From an uncultured Acidimicrobiales bacterium (GTDB lineage: Bacteria > Actinomycetota > Acidimicrobiia > Acidimicrobiales > CAWCAL01), in assembly GCA_963793475.1 (NCBI GenBank), contig CAWCAL010000003.1, positions 299,628-363,627 of the forward strand: a stretch of 64,000 bases of DNA, given 5' to 3'. Below are positions 9,773 through 59,538 of this stretch, in pieces. The position numbers and the translations under genes are program-made. Position 1 is the stretch's first letter; the number at the start of each line of letters is the position of its first letter. The notes below the pieces were generated by a model. It was not told the DNA's origin. It was given only the letters and a program-made list of their open reading frames with translations, and searched no databases.

Positions 9773-10435
9773 ATGCAACGTTCACGTACCTCCAAACTCC
9801 GATTCGGACTGCTTCCCCTGCTCCTCGCTTTCGCGCTGATCGCCGCCGCCTGTGGTGACGACGATGACGACGCCGGCGACGAGACCGGCGACACCGCCGC
9901 ATCGACTTCGGAGACCGAAGAGATGGCCGACACCGAAGACGAGATGGCCGACACCGAGGACGAGATGGCCGACACCGAAGACGAGATGGCCGACACCGAT
10001 GAGGCCGCCAGCGCCACCATCGTCGACGTCGCCACCGACGCGGGCACCTTCACCACGCTGATCGCTGCCGTTGATGCGGCCGGTCTGACCGAGACCCTGG
10101 TCGGCGAAGGCCCGTTCACGGTCCTGGCGCCCACCGATGAGGCGTTCGCCGCCTTGCCCGAGGGCACGGTCGAGTCACTGCTCGAAGACCCGGAAGGCGC
10201 GCTCACCGACGTCCTGAGCCTGCACGTGATCTCCGGAACCGCCGCACTCTCCACTGACGTTGTCGCCATCGGCGACGGCGGCACCCTGGACACCCTCGGT
10301 GGCCCCGTCTCCGTCAACATCGACGGCGAGGCCGTCTCCTTCGGCACCGGCGACGCTGCCCTGGTGACCGCCGATGTCGAAGCCGACAACGGCGTCATCC
10401 ACATCATCGACGGCGTGATCACCGAAGCCGGCTGA
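9773..10435 (+). CDS. Fasciclin (FAS1) domain lipoprotein
   Basis: Lipoprotein signal LLLAFALIAAACGDDDDD, an acidic repeat linker, then FAS1 motifs GPFTVLAPTDEAFAALP and NGVIHIIDGVI. Confidence 0.9.
   Translation: MQRSRTSKLRFGLLPLLLAFALIAAACGDDDDDAGDETGDTAASTSETEEMADTEDEMADTEDEMADTEDEMADTDEAASATIVDVATDAGTFTTLIAAVDAAGLTETLVGEGPFTVLAPTDEAFAALPEGTVESLLEDPEGALTDVLSLHVISGTAALSTDVVAIGDGGTLDTLGGPVSVNIDGEAVSFGTGDAALVTADVEADNGVIHIIDGVITEAG
9920..10003 (+). repeat. Tandem repeat, 4 x 21 bp (gagatggccgacaccgaRgac), in frame
   Basis: Units at 9920..9940, 9941..9961, 9962..9982 and 9983..10003 differ by 1-3 nt. They encode (EMADTED)x4 in the linker of the fasciclin lipoprotein. Confidence 0.95.
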
Positions 10436-27144: not shown

Positions 27145-28556
27145 CAGGCCGGAGCGGCTGCGTCGGCCCCCGGGGGCACGTCCTGCATCGTGTCCATCAT
27201 CCCCTCCATGATCCCCCGGATGAACTCGTCCGCCTCGTCGGTGAGGCCGCCCGCGACGCCTCCGTAGATGGCGGCGCTGAACGGATCTTCTCCCTTGTGC
27301 TCGTGGCCGTAGGCCACCGCCTCGGCCAGGTCCTCTCGGAACGCATCGGCGACCCCGTCCTGGGTCTGCGGCCGGGTGACGGCCATGTGGATGGCGTTGG
27401 GGTACTGCTGGCCGTTGAAGCGCCAGCCCTTCTTCCGCATGAAGTCGTTGACGTGGTAGATGTCGAACTCGTCGCTGGTGAAACTGAAGCAGAAGGTCGG
27501 GTCGCCCATGATCCGCAGCGAGTCGTGGGACCGTACCGCCTCCTTCATGGCGTCGGCGGTGGCGAAGATCTTCTCGGCGTACCCGAGGTAGCCGTCGCGA
27601 CCCAGGCTGACCATGGCCGCCCACGTCGCAGCCAGCAGGCCGCCCGACCGGGAGCCGTCGATCCCGGGCGAGAAGTACTTTCCGCCGGTCCAATCGGTCA
27701 GGTAGAAGTACTGGCCGTTGCGCAGGGCCCGGTTGCGGAAGGCGAGCACGGAGGTGCCCTTGAATCCGTAGGCGTACTTGTGGGTGTCGGCGGAGATGGA
27801 CGTGACCCCCGGCACCGAGAAGTCGAACGGTTCGATCGGGTACCCGAGCTCGCGTCCCCAGGGCAGGATGAACCCTCCGAGGCAGCCGTCGACGTGCAGG
27901 CCGATCTCGCGTTCCAGCGCCAGCGCGCCCATGTCGGTGATGGGGTCGACGGTGCCGTAGCCGTAGTTGCAGGCCGATCCGACCATGGCGATCGTCTGGT
28001 CGTCGACCAACGCGGCGACGGCATCGAGGTCGGCCTTCGTGGTCTCCGGATCGACGGGCGCCCGCCGCATCTCGACACCCAGCAGGTGGCAGGCCTTGTC
28101 GAACGCCGGGTGCCCCGTCTCGGGCTTGACGAAGTTGGGCCGCTCGACGCCGCGGGCGGTGGCCTCTTCCCGGTAGGCCAACAGGGCGTGCAGGATGCTG
28201 CCGCTGCCGCCCGAGGTGACCATGCCGACCGGATCGGACTCGGGTCCCGCCTGTGCGGCTCCCAGCATGTCCAGGGTCATGGAGATGATCTCACCCTCGA
28301 ACCGCGTCGCGCTGGGACACATGTCCCGCTGGAGGACGTTGACGTGACCGAAGAGGCCGTACGCCTCGGTCATGAAGTCGTAGTGATCGTGATCCCCGCA
28401 GTACATGGTCCCCGAGCAGCGTCCGGTCTCCCAGAACTCGTCCTCGGCGGCGGCGATGGTGGAGAGCTCGGCGGTGATCTCGTCGCGACTCCGACCGTGC
28501 TCGGGCATGCCCCGGTTCACCGGGTACCGATCGGCGTACGGATAGTCGTTGCTCAT
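27144..28556 (-). CDS. PLP-dependent lyase/decarboxylase (group II), sphingosine-1-phosphate-lyase-like
   Basis: ATG 28556 (MSNDYPYADRY), 470 aa. Motifs: GMVTSGGSGSILHALLAYRE, HVDGCLGGFILPW and the PLP-lysine motif SADTHKYAYGFKGTS. Confidence 0.8.
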   Translation of the reverse strand: MSNDYPYADRYPVNRGMPEHGRSRDEITAELSTIAAAEDEFWETGRCSGTMYCGDHDHYDFMTEAYGLFGHVNVLQRDMCPSATRFEGEIISMTLDMLGAAQAGPESDPVGMVTSGGSGSILHALLAYREEATARGVERPNFVKPETGHPAFDKACHLLGVEMRRAPVDPETTKADLDAVAALVDDQTIAMVGSACNYGYGTVDPITDMGALALEREIGLHVDGCLGGFILPWGRELGYPIEPFDFSVPGVTSISADTHKYAYGFKGTSVLAFRNRALRNGQYFYLTDWTGGKYFSPGIDGSRSGGLLAATWAAMVSLGRDGYLGYAEKIFATADAMKEAVRSHDSLRIMGDPTFCFSFTSDEFDIYHVNDFMRKKGWRFNGQQYPNAIHMAVTRPQTQDGVADAFREDLAEAVAYGHEHKGEDPFSAAIYGGVAGGLTDEADEFIRGIMEGMMDTMQDVPPGADAAAPA

Positions 28557-51098: not shown

Positions 51099-53190
51099 TC
51101 ACAAGAGCGCAGCGTCCACGATCTGGTCCTCTGACAACAACACGTGCGCTGCGGCCGCGCCGAGGGGGATCGGCGAGTCGAGGCCGCAGACCCGACGGAT
51201 CTCGCCGGAGAAACCCTCGGTGACCAGTGCGGTGATGATCGCCTCACCCACTCCCCCGGTGGGACGGGTCTCGTCGGCCACCAGGACCCGGCCGGTGGCC
51301 GCAGCGTCGCGGAGGAGATCCTCGACGGGAAGTGGTGCCAGCCAGCGCAGGTCGACGACCCGGGCGTCGACCCCGGCCTCGGCCAACCGGCGCTGCGCGC
51401 GCAACGAGAGGAAGAGCCCGTTCGCCCAGGTGACGATCGTCAGATCCCGGCCGACACCGTGCGTGCGGGCGCGCCCGAGCGGCACGTGGCCGTCATGGGG
51501 TGCCGCCGTCCACAGCCCGTCGCCCTCCTCGTGCAGATCGACGGTGTGGTAGCGAGCGATCGGTTCGAGGAAGGCGCAGACCGCTCCGTCGACACCGGCC
51601 GCTGCGAGGCAGGTGCGCAACATCGGCCCCGCGTCGTCGGGGTGGCCCGGCGACGCGATCACCAGTCCGGGGATGTCCCGCAGGACCGCGACCGAGTTGT
51701 CGTTGTGAAAATGGCCGCCGAATCCCCTCTGGTGGGCGTAGGCAGCGATGCGCACCACCATCGGGTTGCGGTACTGCCCCTGCGAGAAGAACGACAGGGT
51801 GGCCGCCTCGCCCCGCAGCTGGTCCTCGGCGTTGTGCAGGTACGCCAGATACTGGATCTCGGGAACCGGAAGGAACCCGTTGACCGCGCTTCCCAGCGCA
51901 AGGCCCAGGATCGACTGCTCGTCCAGTTCGGTGTCGAAGACCTGCTGCGATCCGTGGCGTCGCTGGAGGCCGCGCGTCACGCCGTAGACGCCGCCCTTGC
52001 CCCCGACGTCCTCACCGAAGACCAGCACGCCCGGATCGGCGGCGAGGGCCGCGTCCAATGTGTGGTTGATCGTCTGCGCCAACGTCCGGGGCGTGTTGTC
52101 GTCGGACGCGTGACCCGCCAGCTCCCGAGCCGCATCCGCGACCCTCTCGGGGTGGCGCACGGCGAGCGGGCCGATGATCGTCTGCGCCGAGGTGAGCTCG
52201 GGCTCGGCGAGCAGCGAGCTTGCCCGTGAACGGATCTCGGTTCGCAGGTCGAGATACCAGCTGACCAGATCGTCGGGCCGAGCCTCGCCGCACCCGACGA
52301 GCAGCCGCGCCGTGGCCAGGATGGGGTCGCGAGCGCGGTCAGCTCGCACCGCAGCCGGATCCCGGTACGCCGATTCGGCGTCGCTCCCGGCGTGCCCGAG
52401 GAACCGAACCGTCCGGAGGTGCAGGAACGCAGGAGTGCCGTCGCGCCGCGCCGCACCGACTAGCTCGGCGGTGGTCTCGAGCACACCGGTGGGATCGGTG
52501 CCGTCGGCCGCGGCCCAGCGCAGCCCGGGGCGAGCCGAGGTGGAGCGCTCGACCCACTCGGGTGGGGTGGGCACGCTGATGCCGAGACCGTTGTCCTCGC
52601 ACACGAACAGGATCGGGCATCGTTCGCCGACGTGGGCGGCGAGTGCAGCCCGATTGAGGGCCCCCTGGGCGGTCGAGTGGTTCAGCGAGGCGTCGCCGAA
52701 ACTGCAGGTCACGACCGAGTCGGCCGGCCAGGTCGTCCCGGCTTCCGGAGCGGCGCGCTCGAGGCTGAGGGCGAGGCCGACCGCACGAGGGAGGTGGGAC
52801 GCAATGGTCGAGGTCTGCGGGATGACGGACAGCTCACGCCGACCGAACACCTTGTGACGTCCGCCGGCCATGGGCTCGGTGGAGCGGGCCAGCAGACCGC
52901 GCAGGACGTCGTCGACCGGGTCCACGCCCGGGACCGTTCCGGCGCGCGGCGACGTAGAACCCGCCCGACCGGTAGTGGAGCAATGCGGGGTCGGACGGCC
53001 CCAGCACCATGGCGACTGCCGCATTGGCCTCATGACCGGCCGACGCGATCGTGTAGTAGCCGTGGCCCCCCGCTCGGAGCCATCGGGCCGTGTGGTCGAG
53101 CAGGCGGCTGGTGACCTGCGCCTCGAGGAGCAGGTCGAGCGCCAGCGGATCGAAGGTCGCACTCGGCCAGGCCGTTCCATCCGGCACCAA
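51099..53190 (-). CDS. Fused alpha/beta TPP-dependent 2-oxoacid dehydrogenase E1 component (one frameshift as assembled)
   Basis: Track ORFs 52834..53190 and 51099..53279 join as ...ASAGHEANAAVAMVLGPSDPALLHYRSGGFYVA | ...GTVPGVDPVDDVLRGLLARSTEPMAGGRHKVFG..., with the frame change near 52940..52950. The alpha part carries GDASLNHSTAQGALN. The beta part carries VFGEDVGGKGGVYGVT and DTELDEQSILGLALG. The start is uncertain (GTG 53190 or TTG 53193; the in-frame stop is at about 53245). Confidence 0.85.
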
Positions 53191-53248
53191 CGAGACGACG
53201 CCGTCGAGCAGCGCGGCTTCGAGCGGGTCGAGGTCGTCGGGCAGATCG

Positions 53249-54310
53249 ATGCGTCACTCTTGCGCCGTCCTTCCGGCACCGCAACAGTGGGTCATCGCCC
53301 ATTCCGAATCCTCCGACCCGGTCGAGCCCACGCGTGCGATCGACCCTCGGGAACCCGTCGACCCGGAACCGCGACCGGTCCTGGTCATCCACGGTGTCGC
53401 TCATCGCGACCGTGCCGCGTTCGAGAAGGAAGTCGCCACCCTCGGTGCCGCGCTCGGGCCCGGGTGTCGACTGGTGCCCGTCTACTGGGGAGACTTCGCC
53501 CGCCGGGCCGACTCGGTGGATCAGGTCCTGCCCTACCTGGATTGGGCGTCCTCCGCCGGCGACGACGTCCTGGGCGAGGTCGAATCGTCCTCCCTTCGCG
53601 GTGCGCTGGCCGACCGCGACATGGCCCAGGCCTTCGGCTCACTGACCAGCGGATGGAAACGTCGCAGCGCTTCCTCGCGCCGCAAGGTGATCGGCGTCTT
53701 CTACGCAATCATCCGGCGCCAGTACCTGCGGGCGTCGGCGCAGTTCACGGGCGACCTCATCCTGTACCAGCGGCGAAAGGTCGAGCTCCACGCGGTGATC
53801 TGGGAGACGGTCATGCGCCACGCACCCGGGTACGGGATCCGGGAACGGCCGATCGATGTCATCGCCCACTCGTTGGGCGCCACGATGATGTTCGATCTCG
53901 CCGTTGAAGGGCACCCCGCGCTCCACATCGACCACCTCATCACCTGCGCCAGCCAGACCGGGTTCTTCCACGCGATCGGTGCCTCGCCGTCGCCGCTCGA
54001 CCGCGTCGACCCCGACGACCTGGTCGACCTCCCACCCACGATCCGATCGTGGGCCAATCTCTACGTGCCGCTGGATCCGTGGGCCTTCCTCACGGCTCCG
54101 GTGTTCCGGTTGCACGACGCCAGCGAGCCCGATGACATCGAGGTGTACGCGGGCGAGCGGGGCGACCGCATCCTGACCCACGCCGCCAGCCACTATTGGA
54201 CCCACCCGGTCGTGCTCGAAACCATCCGACGCGAGCTCGGGCTCCCACCTCCGGATCCGGCTGTCGATAGCCTGCAGCCGGCCCCGACGACCGACGAGGA
54301 GGTGACATGA
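53249..54310 (+). CDS. Alpha/beta-hydrolase-like protein of unknown family, translationally coupled to selD
   Basis: In-frame ATG 53249 within track ORF 53090..54310. Sequence PVLVIHGVAHRD, the nucleophile-elbow-like DVIAHSLGATMMFDL (xHSxG), then later NLYVPLDPWAF and THAASHYWTHP. Its stop at 54308..54310 overlaps the selD ATG at 54307 (ATGA). Confidence 0.6.
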   Translation: MRHSCAVLPAPQQWVIAHSESSDPVEPTRAIDPREPVDPEPRPVLVIHGVAHRDRAAFEKEVATLGAALGPGCRLVPVYWGDFARRADSVDQVLPYLDWASSAGDDVLGEVESSSLRGALADRDMAQAFGSLTSGWKRRSASSRRKVIGVFYAIIRRQYLRASAQFTGDLILYQRRKVELHAVIWETVMRHAPGYGIRERPIDVIAHSLGATMMFDLAVEGHPALHIDHLITCASQTGFFHAIGASPSPLDRVDPDDLVDLPPTIRSWANLYVPLDPWAFLTAPVFRLHDASEPDDIEVYAGERGDRILTHAASHYWTHPVVLETIRRELGLPPPDPAVDSLQPAPTTDEEVT

Positions 54311-55347
54311 GCGACACGAATCCACCCCGACTGACCCAGTTCAGCCACGGCGCCGGTTGAGGCTGCAAGCTCGCCCCGGGCGAGTTGGCGCAGGTGCTGC
54401 GCCGGATGCAGACCGACCCACCGGAGAATCTTCTCGTCGGCACCGCAACGGGTGACGACGCAGCGGTCTGGCGGATCGACGCCGATCGAGCGCTCATCTC
54501 CACCGTCGACTTCATCACGCCGGTGGTGGACGACGCGCGCACCTGGGGCCGCGTCGCCGCGGCCAACAGCGTCTCGGATGTGTACGCCATGGGAGGTCGA
54601 CCGCTGTTCGCCCTCAATCTGGTGGGTTGGAACACCGACGTCCTGTCGACGGAACTGCTCGGGGAGCTTCTGGCCGGTGGCCAGGACATCGCGACCGACG
54701 GTGGCTTCGCCGTTGTCGGTGGCCACACGATCGACGACCCCGAACCCAAGTACGGGCTGTCGGTCGTCGGCGAGGTCCACCCCGACCGCATCCTGACCAA
54801 CGCCGGACTTCGGCCGGACCAGGACCTGATCCTGACCAAGCCGCTGGGCATCGGGGTCATCACCACCGCGATCAAGTCCGGCGACGCACCGGAGCCGGTC
54901 ATGGACGCCGCGGTGGCGTCGATGACCAGGCTCAACGATGAGGCATCCCGAGTGGCGCTCGCCTCGGGTGCCTCGGGGTGCACCGACGTCACCGGGTTCG
55001 GGCTGCTGGGTCACCTGGGCCGGATGGCGCTCGAGTCGGGGGTGCAGGCGACCATCGAGGTTGCGTCGGTGCCCCAGCTGCCGGGGAGCCGCGACCTCGC
55101 TGCGCAGGGCGCGATCCCGGGCGGAAGCCGGCGCAACCTCGCGTGGAGCGAGTCCTTCCTGGACGCCGGAGGCCACGACGAGCTGACGCGCCTGCTGCTC
55201 GCCGATGCGCAGACGTCCGGCGGGCTCGTGTTCGGCGTTCCGCCGGTCCGGACCGACGATGCACTGGCCCGGCTGGCCGATGGCGGCCACACCGCCGCCC
55301 GCATCGGCCGGACCAGCTCCGGCCCCGCCGGGATCGCGCTCCGGTAG
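54307..55347 (+). CDS. selD: Selenide, water dikinase (selenophosphate synthetase) with in-frame UGA = selenocysteine
   Basis: The track ORF starts at internal Met 54385 because of TGA 54358..54360. Reading from ATG 54307 gives MSDTNPPRLTQFSHGAG-U-GCKLAPGELAQVLRRM..., which is the SelD N-terminal GAG(C/U)GCK active-site loop. Downstream motifs: GDDAAV, DFITPVVDD, NSVSDVYAMGG and GGHTIDD. Confidence 0.9.
54367..54386 (+). promoter_or_regulatory. Candidate SECIS-like hairpin 7 nt after the selD UGA
   Basis: aagctcgccccgggcgagtt. AA(g)CTCGCC pairs with GGCGAGTT with one bulged G and a 3-5 nt apical loop. A second hairpin, ggcgcag-gtg-ctgcgcc, follows at 54387..54403. Not validated against any SECIS model. 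Confidence 0.35.
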
Positions 55348-55479
55348 CGGTCCGAGCCCCCCTGGTGTGGACGGGAGAAACCTCGTCGGCAGAGGACCTT
55401 CGGCCCTCCCGCGATCACCTCGGGTCGTGGTGTGATCGGAGGAAGAGCAGGACCGAGCGGAAGGATCGCGACCGTGGCC

Positions 55480-56052
55480 ATGAGAAGCGCCAGCCTGGTG
55501 GATGACCAGCTTGCGGCCCAGATCGACGTGGCCGAAGCGCGCCTCGCGGCCTTTCTGACCTGTCTCGACGAGGTGTCCGACCAGTCGATCCGCCGCCGAC
55601 TCACGGTGCGGGCCGAAGGGGTCGACCGGCGCTGCTCGACCCTCCGGGCCACCGTGGGCGAGCCCACTCCCATCCCGATCGGGACACCGACGGCGGTCGA
55701 AGACCTCGGAGCGACGATGGACACGCTCGAAGCCGATCTGGACGCTGCGACCCAGGTCGAGGCCGGCCCCTACAAGGCGGCCGCCGATCGGCAGGCTCGG
55801 GCGTGGCGGGGCCGCACCGACCGGCTCCGGGTGCAGGCGGCGCTGGGTGTCATGGAACTGAAGGACGACCTGGAGGGTCTGGCCCGTCGGCTCGACCACG
55901 TACGGGCTTCGGCCCTCGTGGAACTGCGTGAAGCGGTCAGCGATGCCAGGGATGGCGTCGAGGACGTTCGGGGCGACATGGAGGAGGTGCTCGGCGACCT
56001 GCGCCGAGCCGTCGACCGAGCGGTCGGGGCGATCGGCGACCCGGCGCCATGA
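55480..56052 (+). CDS. Hypothetical all-helical acidic/basic protein, translationally coupled to the radical SAM gene
   Basis: In-frame ATG 55480 within track ORF 55432..56052. Sequence MRSASLVDDQLAAQIDVAEARLAAFL...LKDDLEGLARRLDHVRASALVELREAVSDARDGVEDVRGDMEEVLGDLRRAVDRAV. Its stop overlaps the ATG at 56049 of the next gene (ATGA). Confidence 0.55.
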   Translation: MRSASLVDDQLAAQIDVAEARLAAFLTCLDEVSDQSIRRRLTVRAEGVDRRCSTLRATVGEPTPIPIGTPTAVEDLGATMDTLEADLDAATQVEAGPYKAAADRQARAWRGRTDRLRVQAALGVMELKDDLEGLARRLDHVRASALVELREAVSDARDGVEDVRGDMEEVLGDLRRAVDRAVGAIGDPAP

Positions 56053-57141
56053 CGGCGGTGGCCACCCGCTACTGGCACACCCTGGATGACGGGCGGGTCC
56101 AGTGCGATGTGTGCCCTCGAGCCTGCAAGCTGCGCGACGGGCAGAAGGGCGTGTGCTTCGTGCGCGGTCGGGTCGGTGACGGCATCGTCCTCCACACGTA
56201 CGGCCGCTCGAGCGGGTTCTGCGTCGACCCGATCGAGAAGAAGCCGCTCAACCACGTCCTCCCCGGCTCGACCACCTTCTCCTTCGGCACGGCCGGCTGC
56301 AATCTCGCCTGCCGGTTCTGCCAGAACTGGGACATCTCCAAGTCCAAGGAGATCGACACCCTCGCCGCCTCGGCCACCCCCGAGATGATCGCCGGAGCTG
56401 CGGACGACCTGGGGTGCCGCAGCGTGGCGTTCACCTACAACGATCCGACCATCTTCCTCGAGTACGCCATCGATGTCGCCGAGCGCGTGTCACGCTCGGG
56501 GCCTCCGGACCGTTGCCGTCACCGCCGGCTACATCTGTCCGGAGCCGCGAGCCGACTTCTATCGCCACCTCGATGCGGCCAATGTCGACCTGAAGGGGTT
56601 CAGCGAGGACTTCTACCGGCACACATGCGGGGCCGAGCTCGGCGCGGTCCTGGACACGCTGCGATACCTCGACGAAACCGACGTCTGGGTCGAGCTCACC
56701 ACCCTGTTGATCCCCGGACTCAACGACAGCGACGCCGAGCTGGACGCCATGACTGCGTGGGTCGTCGACCACCTCGGCCCTGACGTGCCCATGCACTTCT
56801 CGGCCTTCCACCCCGACTACCGGATGCTGGACCGACCGCCGACACCGCCCGAGACGCTCAGCCACGCCCGGTCCAGAGCACTCGCCAACGGCGTGCGCTA
56901 CGCCTACACCGGCAATGTCCACGACCGCGCCGGGCAGTGCACGGCCTGCGCCGCCTGCGGCGAGGTGGTGATCGACCGCGACTGGTACCGGCTGGGTCGC
57001 TACGAGCTGGACGACTCCGGCCATTGCCGGTCGTGCGGTGCGAGGATCCCCGGCATCTTCGACGGACCCTGCGGCGACGGCATCGCCACGAGTCGCCCGG
57101 TCACGCTGCACTCACCACCCGACCGGGAGCCGACCCCATGA
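56049..57141 (+). CDS. AmmeMemoRadiSam system radical SAM enzyme (one frameshift as assembled)
   Basis: Track ORFs 56049..56783 and 56473..57141 join as ...IFLEYAIDVAER | CHARGLRTVAVTAGYICPE..., with the frame change near 56484..56488. Motifs: N-terminal CDVCPRACKLRDGQKGVC, the radical SAM site GTAGCNLACRFCQNW, and a C-terminal 4-Cys ribbon CTACAACG...CRSCG. Confidence 0.85.
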
Positions 57142-57944
57142 GTACCACGCCGCGCACCGTCCGTCCTCCCGCCGTGGCCGGCACGTTCTACCCGGCCCAA
57201 CCCAGCGTGTTGCGCAGCGCGCTCCGGCGAGCCTTCGCTCGCGCCGAGCGGCCCCGCGCCGGAGCGCCCACCCCCCGAGCGCTGGTCGTCCCGCATGCCG
57301 GGTACGTGTACTCCGGAGCGGTCGCCGCCGGCGGATACCTTCGCTTGCGGCGAGCGACGCCGACCATCGAGCGGGTGGTCCTGCTCGGCCCCAGCCACTT
57401 CGTCCCCCTGGACGGTGTCGGCGTCTCCGGAGCCGACGCGTTCGCCACACCGCTGGCCGACGTGATCGTCGACGACGAGGCCCGGTCCAGGGTGCTCTCG
57501 CTTCCGGGCGTCGGGTTGAACGATGAAGCACACGAGCAGGAACACAGCTTGGAAGTGCAGCTCCCGTTCCTCCAGACCGTCCTCGACGGCTTCACCCTGC
57601 TTCCCCTTGTGGTCGGTCGGGCCGATCCCGACGATGTCGCCCGGCTCATCGACTCGTTCTGGGACGAGCCGGGGACGGTCATCGTGGTCAGCACCGATCT
57701 CTCCCACTATCACCGCTACGCCGACGCGGTTCGGCTGGACGCCCGGACCGCCGCCGCCATCGTCGCCGGGCGGGCCGACGCGATCGGCGACGCCGATGCC
57801 TGCGGGGCACGACCGCTGAGGGGGCTCCTCATCGCCGGAGGTCGCCGAGCGTGCCGGGTCGAGCGGATCGACCTCCGCAACTCGGGTGACACCACGGGGG
57901 ATCGGCAACGAGTGGTCGGGTATGGAACCTTTGCCGTCGCCTGA
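57138..57944 (+). CDS. AmmeMemoRadiSam system protein B (MEMO1 family)
   Basis: ATG 57138 overlaps the preceding stop (ATGA). Motifs: AGTFYP, VVPHAGYVYSG, LLGPSH, EHSLEVQLPFLQ and STDLSHYH. Confidence 0.85.
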   Translation: MSTTPRTVRPPAVAGTFYPAQPSVLRSALRRAFARAERPRAGAPTPRALVVPHAGYVYSGAVAAGGYLRLRRATPTIERVVLLGPSHFVPLDGVGVSGADAFATPLADVIVDDEARSRVLSLPGVGLNDEAHEQEHSLEVQLPFLQTVLDGFTLLPLVVGRADPDDVARLIDSFWDEPGTVIVVSTDLSHYHRYADAVRLDARTAAAIVAGRADAIGDADACGARPLRGLLIAGGRRACRVERIDLRNSGDTTGDRQRVVGYGTFAVA

Positions 57945-58555
57945 CCCCGTCCTCCTCACCGAGGAGGTCGACCGGCTGTTCGACGACGCACTCGAGGCCA
58001 TCGTCGGGGGTCTGGACGGTCGGCCACCGACCCTCCGGCCGCTGTCGACCCTTCCCGCCGGGCTCCGTTCCTCGATCGGGTCCTTCGTGAGCCTGTACGT
58101 CGACGACGAGCTGAACGGGTGCATCGGCACCGTCGAGCGGGTCGAACCGCTCGGTCGGGCGGTCCCACGGCTGGCGTGGTCCGCAGCATTCGGCGACCCA
58201 CGGCTTCCCCGCTGCTGCGGTCGTCCGGGATCGACCGGCTCACCATCGAGATCTCCCTGCTGTCCGCGCTCGCACCGATCGGTGCCGACTCGTCGAGACG
58301 CTGATCGAGCTCGTACTGCCTCGATGCGACGGTGTGGTCGTCCGGGCCGGCGGGCGGCAGGGATTGTTCCTGCCGAGCGTGTGGGGGCAGCTACCCGACC
58401 CCGACGCCTTCGTCGCCCAGCTCTTCCACAAGGCGGGTCTGACGCCCGGATCCTGGCCGGTCGGGACGCAGGCCCACCGCTTCACGACCACGACCTACCG
58501 GCGGGGCCCGAGCCGCCGGCCGGCCGACCCGGCCGGGATCAGAGCTTCCCGATGA
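57922..58555 (+). CDS. AmmeMemoRadiSam system protein A (AMMECR1 domain; two frameshifts as assembled)
   Basis: Three track ORFs (57886..58665, 58119..58304, 58334..58555) join into one protein. The sequence runs MEPLPSPDPV...GSFVSLYVDDELNGCIGTVE...AAFGDPRLP | PLLRSSGIDRLTIEISLLSALAPIGADS | VETLIELVLPRCDGVVVRAGGRQGLFLPSVWGQLPD... Frame changes fall at the C-run 58207..58210 and near 58290. Confidence 0.8.
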
Positions 58556-59012
58556 TCTCCTCGGCGTGCGCCGCGGTCTTCGGCCGCTTGAAGACATGCT
58601 GGATGACACCGTCCTCGTCGATGAGGAACGTCGTGCGCTGCAGTCCCGTGAACGTCTTTCCGTAGTTCTTCCGCTCGCCCCAGACGCCGTACTGCTCGAT
58701 GATGGTCCGGTCGGGATCGGCCACCAGCGGGAACGTCAGGTCGTGCTGCTCGGTGAACCGCTCGTGGCTGCTGTCGTCGTCCGGCGAGATGCCGATGACG
58801 GCGATCCCGTGCTCCTCCAGGAGTGCGAGATTGTCCCGGAGGTTGCAGGCCTGTGCGGTACAGCCCGGGGTGTTGTCCTTCGGGTAGAAGTACACCACCA
58901 CCTTTCGGCCCCGAAGCTCGGCGAGGTCGATGACCGTTCCGGTGTGGGTGGTGGCGGTGAACAGGGGCGCCGGTTGTCCGGCGTTCAGCGGGTCGGGTTT
59001 CGCGGCCATCAA
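58539..59012 (-). CDS. bcp: Peroxiredoxin Bcp (thioredoxin-dependent thiol peroxidase)
   Basis: Intact 157-aa ORF. Sequence VVVYFYPKDNTPGCTAQACNLRD carries the CxxxxC pair, followed by FPLVADPD. Confidence 0.9.
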   Translation of the reverse strand: MMAAKPDPLNAGQPAPLFTATTHTGTVIDLAELRGRKVVVYFYPKDNTPGCTAQACNLRDNLALLEEHGIAVIGISPDDDSSHERFTEQHDLTFPLVADPDRTIIEQYGVWGERKNYGKTFTGLQRTTFLIDEDGVIQHVFKRPKTAAHAEEIIGKL

Positions 59013-59136
59013 CGGCTCCTTGTCGATCGGCTCGTGATGCTAGGGCACGCTTGACAGGGGACCGCGACGACGGGAAAGATGCCCGGTCGGCGCTGCGACG
59101 CCGAATCCTCCGCCTCTCTATGCGAAAGCTGACCCC

Positions 59137-59538
59137 ATGTTCCTCGCTGCTGAATTCGGAACCGGCCAGGTGCTCTGGTCGATCTTCTACTTCTTCCTGA
59201 TCTTCCTGTGGATCTGGTTGGTCATCACCGTGTTCGTCGACATCATCCGGAGCGACGACCTCTCGGGCGGCGTGAAGGCGCTCTGGGCCGTGGTCATCAT
59301 CTTCCTCCCCTACCTCGGCATCTTCATCTATCTCATCGCTCGCGGTGGCAGCATGGCCGACCGCCAGGTCCAGGACGCCCAGGCGGCCGACGAGGCGAGA
59401 AGGGCCTACATCCGTGAGACCGCGGGCGGCTCCAGCGCAGCCGATCAGCTCGCGAAGCTCTCCGAGATGCACTCCAACGGCAAGCTGGACGACGCCGAGT
59501 ACGCCCAGGCGAAGGCGAAGGTGCTCGGGCCGACGTGA
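59137..59538 (+). CDS. PLDc_N-type small membrane protein with C-terminal SHOCT domain
   Basis: Intact 133-aa ORF. Two TMs end in KALWAVVIIFLPYLGIFIYLIARG. The C-terminus ADQLAKLSEMHSNGKLDDAEYAQAKAKVLG is a SHOCT motif. Confidence 0.75.
   Translation: MFLAAEFGTGQVLWSIFYFFLIFLWIWLVITVFVDIIRSDDLSGGVKALWAVVIIFLPYLGIFIYLIARGGSMADRQVQDAQAADEARRAYIRETAGGSSAADQLAKLSEMHSNGKLDDAEYAQAKAKVLGPT

Follow-up and report, generated by a model that had tools for sequence, protein, structure and literature searches.

An AmmeMemoRadiSam operon led by a stress-protein gene and a candidate DevR/OsdR-like box in an uncultured Acidimicrobiales bacterium

AmmeMemoRadiSam is a widely distributed three-gene system whose human homologues are MEMO1 and AMMECR1. 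Genes for Usp, HSP20, CBS and ribosome hibernation factor proteins and for P-type ATPases are known classes of the DosR regulon, and to our knowledge AmmeMemoRadiSam genes have not been counted among the members of DevR, DosR or OsdR regulons. The association of the AmmeMemoRadiSam genes was first noted by Balaji and Aravind in 2007 (PMC2034487). The published prediction is that the radical SAM enzyme (rSAM), the Memo-type dioxygenase-fold protein and the AMMECR1 cysteine protein carry out an RNA-base or similar modification; our search of the literature for a newly found function of the system returned none. The rSAM family is large (at least 7983 clusters at E<=1e-100), and its nearest characterised radical SAM relatives are the glycyl-radical enzyme activases (PFL-AE family). 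Another described family that bears on the present locus is that of Sll1863, a top salt-induced general stress protein in Synechocystis (PMC8670252).

The window analysed here is a stretch of 64,000 nt from an uncultured Acidimicrobiales bacterium. Its positions 55384-58555 hold a four-gene operon, of which the last three genes are the standard AmmeMemoRadiSam trio (Table 1). An earlier note on this DNA had described four ORFs chained by overlaps, and these ORFs and overlaps were found again: ATGA joins the helical ORF to the rSAM gene (56049/56052) and the rSAM gene to the Memo gene (57138/57141), while the Memo end at 57944 and the AMMECR1 start at 57922 give a 23-nt overlap. The identity of the trio was also borne out, as all three proteins passed their NCBIfam models. 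With base 56484 removed, the rSAM scored 604.8 bits on TIGR04337 (cut-off 220), and its unrepaired fragments each passed alone (271 and 317 bits). Protein B scored 245.3 bits on TIGR04336 (cut-off 26), with a Pfam Memo match at E = 2.8e-49. Protein A reached 143.9 bits on TIGR04335 (cut-off 99) once its frames were repaired, its unrepaired fragments (49.6 and 59.4 bits) staying under the cut-off. The rSAM cluster motif CNLACRFC (CxxxCxxC) and the GCIG motif of protein A are both present.

Table 1. Features of the operon and of the genes upstream of it, in positions of the window.
Feature	Position	Strand	Remarks
Uncharacterised alpha/beta-hydrolase-like gene, separate upstream unit	53249..54310	+	ATGA overlap with selD
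Sec-type selD, upstream neighbour outside the system	54307..55347	+	TGA at 54358-54360; TIGR00476
Conserved upstream region (putative promoter and 5' leader)	55384..55473	+	includes ribosome-binding site GGAAGGA, 55459-55465
DevR/OsdR-like box AGGACCTTCGGCCCT (candidate)	55393..55407	+	81 nt before the start codon, in an invariant 23-nt block, 55389-55411
Helical ORF, divergent sll1863-like stress protein, operon leader gene	55474..56052	+	192 aa from the more likely GTG start
AmmeMemoRadiSam radical SAM enzyme	56049..57141	+	frame split by one extra base, 56484
AmmeMemoRadiSam protein B (MEMO1-like)	57138..57944	+	intact; TIGR04336
AmmeMemoRadiSam protein A (AMMECR1-like)	57922..58555	+	frame breaks at ~58209-58214 and ~58292-58294

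As in other AmmeMemoRadiSam systems, the genes of the trio lie side by side on one strand, overlap, and follow the common order rSAM-Memo-AMMECR1; the same layout was found in the related locus L001 and in 32 of 80 related loci. In contrast to those systems, a stress-protein gene translationally coupled to the trio stands in front of it here, together with the promoter region of that gene, an arrangement limited to a handful of close relatives. Two other relationships of the rSAM were considered and set aside. It matched PFLA and other activase models weakly, far under their cut-offs (47.8 bits on TIGR02493 against 231.75; 47.7 on TIGR02494 against 174.35), and unlike the PFL-AE family it has no glycyl-radical enzyme gene nearby. 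A BFN-domain gene, as an alternative conserved partner, adjoins the rSAM gene in only one of the 80 loci (L010) and in L106. We consider it likely that the whole is best explained as an ordinary trio standing behind a dispensable stress gene and a stress-type promoter, with selD incidental and the frameshifts being assembly errors.

The upstream region of about 90 nt aligns with its counterparts in L001, L006, L104 and L105, whichever gene stands further upstream, and in L104 it precedes the rSAM gene directly. The 19-mer at its candidate box occurs once in the window, where chance alone would give 0.04 matches. The candidate box shares with those of DevR/DosR (Mycobacterium tuberculosis) and OsdR (Streptomyces coelicolor) the pentamer-N4-pentamer layout GGGAC-N4-GKCCC, a placement at about -80 to -150 and frequent pairing; it differs from them in its central bases, which are CTTS here as opposed to TWWA or GATC. 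The OsdR consensus used for this comparison was AGGGCCGATCGGCCCT (PMC5069765).

Similar boxes stand at -59 to -152 upstream of most independent members of the helical family. Counted by locus, the helical ORF is preceded by a box in the clade of the window and in five of eight independent distant loci, against a background of ~0.07 per 300 nt. Across the 21 kb of L104, the two strongest boxes both fall in the 220-nt intergenic region between HSP20 and rSAM genes, and five of the seven sites in L003 are intergenic, where intergenic DNA makes up ~6% of the sequence. The motif recurs in both orientations, often paired, upstream of Usp, CBS, HSP20 and helical genes, and the box-associated genes as a set (Usp, HSP20, CBS, ribosome hibernation factor, P-type ATPase) match those of the DosR regulon. 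Overall counts of the box pattern showed no enrichment in L003 or in the window, and neither a DevR-type regulator nor a Usp gene was seen among the ~40 ORFs scanned in the window. At loci that lack the helical gene, DevR-like boxes occurred upstream of the rSAM gene at the background rate (4/76). Thus, the stress wiring is not general to AmmeMemoRadiSam.

The resemblance of the motif, together with the gene context, suggests that the candidate box places the operon under stress or hypoxia control. It is unlikely, though a reading of some weight, that a different regulator binds at the upstream element or that the element acts within the leader RNA. The left half-site, AGGAC, is an imperfect one, agreement with the DevR and OsdR consensus is limited to the core half-sites and does not extend to the central bases, and a short hairpin could form from the sequence. 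In an unbiased enumeration of 5-N4-5 patterns the motif ranked top, being present in seven of nine upstream regions, yet the result was borderline, with random segments doing equally well in 10 of 200 draws (~5%). On the other side, the gap between selD and the operon, which contains the leader, folded no better than shuffled sequences (z = 0.26), and an Rfam scan of the window gave no match, as a tRNA scan gave none. Recurrence in both orientations, frequently in pairs and beside stress genes, is typical of a DNA operator.

The arrangement probably arose as follows. In one narrow clade, the trio came to stand directly behind a stress gene, and it would now be expressed from the upstream region of that gene, with the candidate DevR/DosR/OsdR-type box ~80 nt before the start codon. 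Most likely it would then be switched on alongside stress, hypoxia or dormancy genes, and such expression would suit an oxygen-sensitive radical SAM enzyme. That the trio has been captured in this way by a stress, hypoxia or dormancy promoter, first behind the sll1863-like gene and in L104 by fusion to its start codon, is quite possible, and we put it forward tentatively. If true, the trio would serve a dormancy- or hypoxia-induced function in these Acidimicrobiia, which would provide the first physiological condition under which to seek the substrate of a widespread uncharacterised system. The likeness of the promoter region to dormancy-regulon operators, which it shares with Usp- and HSP20-type genes, suggests hypoxia or stress as the condition of expression.

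Whether the trio is functional in this organism depends on how the frameshifts are read. The earlier note had counted one in the rSAM gene and two in the AMMECR1 gene, and these counts were right; the breaks were located by tblastn and alignment to an intact relative (Table 1). At least six further frame breaks were found in five unrelated genes of the window, those for AtuA (two), biotin carboxylase, DUF427, P-type ATPase and xylulokinase, and four breaks share the signature of an extra C before G. The dN/dS values before and after the shifts are equal (0.113/0.123 for rSAM; 0.340/0.341 for AMMECR1), and the broken genes contain no premature stops besides those that the shifts create. Relatives from similar 'contig_N' assemblies are broken in different places, in selD and E1 dehydrogenase in L001 and in AMMECR1 in L104. 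Because of the breaks in unrelated genes, the shared C-before-G signature and the equal dN/dS, the three frameshifts are probably assembly errors and the genes intact. It is improbable that they are real, with rSAM and AMMECR1 being pseudogenes and the system dead in the organism, as the earlier note had allowed. That reading would draw on the clustering of three indels in 1.7 kb, next to Memo, helical, selD and hydrolase-like genes whose frames are whole, and on the search of the protein collection, which yielded no intact rSAM 100% identical to that of the window; exact-match look-ups of the Memo and hydrolase-like proteins returned no identical copy. Gene decay should not be concluded from frameshifts in assemblies of long-read metagenomes. 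Separately, locus L008, a contig from run ERR11523668, is identical to the window and ends 110 nt into the rSAM gene.

The gene that leads the operon is genuine and conserved. Its dN/dS against L001 is 0.24, indicating purifying selection, and homologues, whose absence had been raised earlier as a possibility, were found in 10 clusters among 5.8 billion proteins; a profile search of 1.84 billion representatives gave 18 matches at E<=1e-30. The ORF had been described as 190 aa from ATG 55480. Its end at 56052 stands, and the start is more likely GTG 55474, which lies 8 nt behind the ribosome-binding site and lines up with the homologues' start codons. All 10 of the family members examined matched the NF052504 (sll1863_fam) model (best E = 2e-11). 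The window protein itself scored 20.8 bits (E = 3e-4), under the cut-off of 35, which more distant relatives exceed. By profile comparison it is a divergent relative of the sll1863 family and not a curated member.

With the sll1863 family the helical protein has in common its C-terminal half (residues ~98-182), which aligns with the 93-residue domain, and a stress-related gene context. It differs in carrying an extra N-terminal helical hairpin of ~95 residues and in coming from an actinobacterial rather than a cyanobacterial lineage. An AF2 model of the protein has five helices at moderate confidence (pLDDT 66), and a Foldseek search of the PDB with this model gave nothing at E < 1. Fusions of the helical family with Usp domains exist, and a non-helical loop, IGTPTAVEDL, is conserved among its members.

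The earlier note had proposed that the helical protein might be a substrate, scaffold or fourth component of the system. Its coupling to the rSAM gene, seen there, was upheld: the ATGA overlap is kept in all four full-length lineages (the window, L001/L002, L006/L007 and L089) and also in the truncated ORF of L105. Against the proposal, not one of the 80 nearest rSAM loci, at 63-78% identity, carries the helical ORF, and upstream sequence of 1 kb or more is available for 69 of them, so that a survey of gene neighbourhoods confines the linkage to a narrow clade. Distant members of the helical family (41-64% identity) are found without the trio and without a downstream rSAM gene; those with enough flanking sequence neighbour Usp, CBS, HPF, P-type ATPase, GroEL and Gmad2 genes. 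In the clade itself, the operon of L006/L007 and L104 has a divergent HSP20 gene beside it.

The most direct evidence on this question comes from two natural deletions. In L104, which has the closest rSAM relative (90% identical) and the same synteny, the helical ORF has been precisely deleted and the trio kept; codons 1-9 of the helical ORF run in frame straight into codon 2 of the rSAM gene, and the upstream region is retained. In L105 (rSAM 87% identical), an in-frame internal deletion has cut the helical ORF to 88 aa, again with the trio kept. Since sister lineages removed helical coding sequence while keeping the promoter, start codon and trio, the helical protein appears dispensable to the trio, and these natural deletions point to selection that keeps the promoter and not the leader protein.

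Judged from gene content across these loci, the helical ORF is not an AmmeMemoRadiSam component. That it is nevertheless a true lineage-specific fourth component, acting as substrate, scaffold or rSAM chaperone, is very improbable. The conserved overlap, the purifying selection and the IGTPTAVEDL loop, in principle a possible modification site, speak for it, but the loop is equally present in members unlinked to the trio, most of the family stands in Usp-rich stress loci without it, and the Usp fusions suggest another functional partner. The conserved ATGA coupling may still leave room for a lineage-specific functional tie between the helical ORF and the rSAM. A real fourth component, or a link to selenium, would have been a valuable handle on the substrate; the evidence is against both.

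The selenium link had been suggested by the position of selD, with which the earlier note had joined the hydrolase-like gene and the four downstream genes (53249..58555) in one possible six-gene unit connecting selenophosphate to the radical SAM enzyme. Such a unit is extremely improbable: although the six genes share one strand, only a short gap separates the two groups, no terminator is predicted and the selD neighbourhood is syntenic within the clade, selD occurs within 10 kb of the rSAM gene in 0 of 80 loci, opposite-strand genes (HSP20 in L006/L007 and L104; a 207-aa gene and a BTAD gene in L001 and L105) separate it from the operon in relatives, the operon has retained a conserved upstream region and a start site of its own, and hydrolase-like homologues at 70% and 51% identity are not beside selD. 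The same strand had been reported correctly, and the gap of 132 nt given for ATG 55480 becomes 126 nt from the GTG start. A scan for sigma-70 promoters and intrinsic terminators over 53000-59200, which is poorly suited to high-GC actinobacteria, found nothing; since the stretch from selD to the operon showed no terminator, read-through from selD is possible in this genome.

It thus looks as though selD and the hydrolase-like gene coupled to it form a separate upstream unit, and their adjacency to the operon is a local accident of gene order. The hydrolase-like gene has no Pfam or NCBIfam match; a few of its 187 homologues are named alpha/beta hydrolase. Other in-frame TGA codons between same-frame ORFs of the window, at 10433, 32318, 32618 and 49533, were considered as signs of hidden selenoproteins and proved to be ordinary gene ends. 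The product of selD scored 336.5 bits on its model, and its in-frame TGA, which begins at 54358, occupies the Cys/Sec position of a GAG-U-GCK motif and is conserved in L001 and L006. A hairpin that follows this TGA, conserved in the window, L001 and L006, is a candidate SECIS element.

The association of the AmmeMemoRadiSam genes has been known since 2007, and a role in RNA base modification was predicted for it (PMC2034487); no function for the system was found in the literature searched. In the window (G+C, ~70%), four ORFs had been described in an earlier note as an overlapping chain, in which a helical protein precedes the radical SAM enzyme (rSAM), the MEMO1-like protein B and the AMMECR1-like protein A. 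The ORF coordinates bore out this arrangement, and the identity of the last three genes was confirmed by matches in both Pfam and NCBIfam: Radical_SAM/TIGR04337, Memo/TIGR04336 and AMMECR1/TIGR04335, respectively. The frame-repaired rSAM scored 604.8 bits against TIGR04337 (cut-off, 220), and frame-repaired protein A scored 143.9 bits against TIGR04335 (cut-off, 99). The three genes make up a canonical AmmeMemoRadiSam system. The start codon of the helical ORF is probably a GTG that aligns with the start codons of its homologues and is preceded by GGAAGGA, ending 8 nt before. At the other end of the operon, AMMECR1 and the Bcp peroxiredoxin gene share the last 17 nt of their 3' ends (58539-58555). 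Bcp adjoins the trio in the related loci L001 and L104 as well, and L105 retains only frame-broken Bcp fragments.

Genes of the operon region and frame breaks in other genes of the window
Feature	Position	Strand	Remark
Uncharacterised alpha/beta-hydrolase-like gene, 353 aa	53249-54310	+	ATGA overlap with selD
selD	54307-55347	+	short gap before helical ORF
Helical ORF	55474 (GTG, probable start)-56052	+	
rSAM	56049-57141	+	ATGA overlap with helical ORF
Memo	57138-57944	+	ATGA overlap with rSAM
AMMECR1	57922-58555	+	23-nt overlap with Memo
Bcp peroxiredoxin gene	58539-59012	-	convergent with AMMECR1
Frame breaks, AtuA	60334 and 60486		tblastn with L001 proteins
Frame break, biotin carboxylase	62886		tblastn with L001 proteins
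Frame break, DUF427 gene	~60023		tblastn with L001 proteins
Frame break, heavy-metal P-type ATPase	~42914		HMA part and ATPase part in different frames
Frame break, xylulokinase	26062-26390		gene split across frames

Comparison with the intact relative L001 reproduced the earlier count of frameshifts, placing a single extra base in rSAM (56484) and two breaks in AMMECR1 (~58209-58214 and ~58292-58294). Further breaks in neighboring genes were located by a tblastn search of the window with L001 proteins. At four breaks, a single extra C stands before G (gag[C]gcg, cat[C]gtc, tcg[C]gga and tcg[C]gcg), which is a systematic signature. Breaks in unrelated genes, several of them with this extra C, suggest systematic indel errors in the assembly. 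Related "contig_N" contigs break in other genes, namely selD and the E1 dehydrogenase gene in L001 and AMMECR1 in L104. The dN/dS relative to L001 was the same on either side of the shifts, at 0.113 before and 0.123 after for rSAM and at 0.340 before and 0.341 after for AMMECR1. Judged from these comparisons, the window frameshifts are very probably assembly indels. A GC3 frame model flagged additional candidate breaks at ~17987, ~20616 and ~33775.

The helical ORF had been suggested as a possible fourth component of the system. We surveyed the 80 nearest rSAM loci among GTDB species representatives (63-78% identity), the best matches being from Acidimicrobiales and Ilumatobacteraceae MAGs. 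A helical-family ORF was found in none of the 80, of which 69 had 1 kb or more of sequence upstream, and Memo lay near rSAM in 48. Among the closest rSAM relatives, the genes 5' of rSAM were heterogeneous. Homologues of the helical protein do exist; their linkage to the trio is confined to a few close relatives, with rSAM downstream only in the window (identical to L008), L001/L002, L006/L007 and L089, and in no family member of 64% identity or less. Elsewhere, helical genes are surrounded by about ten Usp genes (L003-5/L095) or adjoin genes for Usp, ribosome hibernation factor, P-type ATPases, GroEL, Gmad2/Germane and CBS proteins (L092, L096, L090 and L099).

Decisive evidence on this link is provided by two natural deletions. 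L104, whose rSAM is 90% identical to that of the window, has the gene order of the window clade (E1 dehydrogenase, hydrolase-like gene, selD, HSP20 on the minus strand, trio, Bcp) and an intact operon upstream region, and lacks the helical ORF; its rSAM begins VSTSTDRLV/TTVPTKYWH, the first nine helical codons being joined in frame to codon 2 of rSAM. In L105, a JGI metagenome contig with an rSAM of 87% identity, an in-frame deletion of residues ~77-180 has cut the helical ORF to 88 aa, and the ATGA overlap with rSAM is kept. Thus, the trio is maintained without the helical protein.

The helical ORF is a real gene, as indicated by a dN/dS of 0.24 and clear conserved blocks in the family alignment. 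The family is tiny: a search of 5.8 billion proteins gave 10 clusters, and its profile found 18 matches at E<=1e-30 and 136 at E<=1e-3 among 1.84 billion representatives, as compared to at least 7983 clusters at E<=1e-100 for the rSAM family. All 10 members matched NCBIfam sll1863_fam through their C-terminal half (best E = 2e-11), the window protein scoring 20.8 bits, under the cut-off of 35, and the shorter distant matches are sll1863-type proteins. Synechocystis Sll1863 is a general stress protein, strongly salt-induced, whose mutant has no phenotype (PMC8670252). The AF2 model of the helical protein has five helices (pLDDT 66), and a structural search with it returned no significant match. 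Two homologues (P0018 and P0063) are fused to Usp domains and one (P0013) to a bifunctional nuclease (BFN) domain. A BFN gene also lies next downstream of the helical ORF in L102 (853-1044), and directly 5' of rSAM in two related lineages (L106, 9361-9993; L010, 9389-9976). These placements may reflect an older helical-BFN-rSAM gene order, or they may be coincidental.

A link to selenophosphate through a six-gene unit with selD fared no better. In the window selD, an in-frame TGA occupies the catalytic position of the GAG-U-GCK motif; it is conserved in L001, L006, L104 and L105, with a hairpin after it in the window, L001 and L006. The pairing of selD with the alpha/beta-hydrolase-like upstream gene, which has an AHSLGA motif and no Pfam or NCBIfam match, is conserved in the same four loci; hydrolase-like homologues at 70% and 51% identity do not adjoin selD. 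We saw no selA, selB or tRNA-Sec in the window, and selD lay within 10 kb of rSAM in none of the 80 loci. Within the clade, other genes intervene between selD and the operon: an opposite-strand HSP20 gene in L006/L007 and L104, and an opposite-strand 207-aa gene together with a BTAD gene in L001 and L105. The window has none of these inserts. No terminator was evident at this junction, so selD read-through into the operon may occur in this genome. No evidence of a functional selD-trio link was found among the 80 loci or in the window clade, and the fourth-component and selenium-link framing is not supported.

The operon does appear to have a promoter region of its own. The window shares a conserved stretch of ~90 nt, leading up to the start codon (55384-55473), with L001, L006, L104 and L105, whether selD, the BTAD gene or the divergent HSP20 gene is next upstream. 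This stretch contains an invariant block, CAGAGGACCTTCGGCCCTCCCGC (55389-55411), whose 19-nt core AGAGGACCTTCGGCCCTCC (55391-55409) occurs once in the window (chance expectation, 0.04 matches). Its center, AGGAC-CTTC-GGCCC, has the pentamer-N4-pentamer layout of the M. tuberculosis DevR and S. coelicolor OsdR operators. The DevR box is TTSGGGACTWWAGTCCCSAA. The OsdR box is AGGGCCGATCGGCCCT, located at -81 and -100 (PMC5069765).

Using the pattern GGGAC-N4-GKCCC with at most one mismatch, we found boxes at -81 to -154 before the helical ORF, both in the window clade and in 5 of the 8 independent distant loci, against a background of ~0.07 per 300 nt; many loci have two. By a hand estimate that varies with the assumed background rate, the probability of this recurrence is ~1e-2 to 1e-4. 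De novo enumeration ranked the motif first (7 of 9 upstream regions), a count also reached in 10 of 200 random-segment draws. Total pattern counts were not enriched, and rSAM loci without a helical gene had the box at background rate only (4/76). In L104, both best matches in 21 kb fall within the 220-nt HSP20-rSAM intergenic region, and in L003, 5 of 7 sites are intergenic, intergenic DNA being ~6% of that sequence. Given this recurrence and its statistical caveats, regulation of the operon by a DevR/OsdR-like factor is reasonable but unproven. The locus represents a known system and is ordinary apart from a regulatory context specific to its lineage; what is new locally is that a leader stress gene is being lost and a putative stress-type promoter region is being kept, a modest, testable hint on the timing of AmmeMemoRadiSam expression.

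The L104 boxes (9865-9934) are near-perfect, GGGACCTTGGGCCCT on the minus strand and AGGACCTTCGGCCCT on the plus strand, 55 nt apart between divergent HSP20 and rSAM, a layout that recalls dormancy-regulon promoters. The 20-kb L003 locus (1-20579), with its Usp genes, genes for CBS, Gmad2, a rhodanese-thioredoxin fusion and DsbB, and DevR-like boxes in several intergenic regions, resembles a dormancy or stress island of an uncultured actinobacterium. In the window, a perfect palindrome, GGGACACATGTCCC (28314-28327), matches the DevR-type core exactly; it apparently falls within a minus-strand PLP-dependent decarboxylase gene or at its 5' end.
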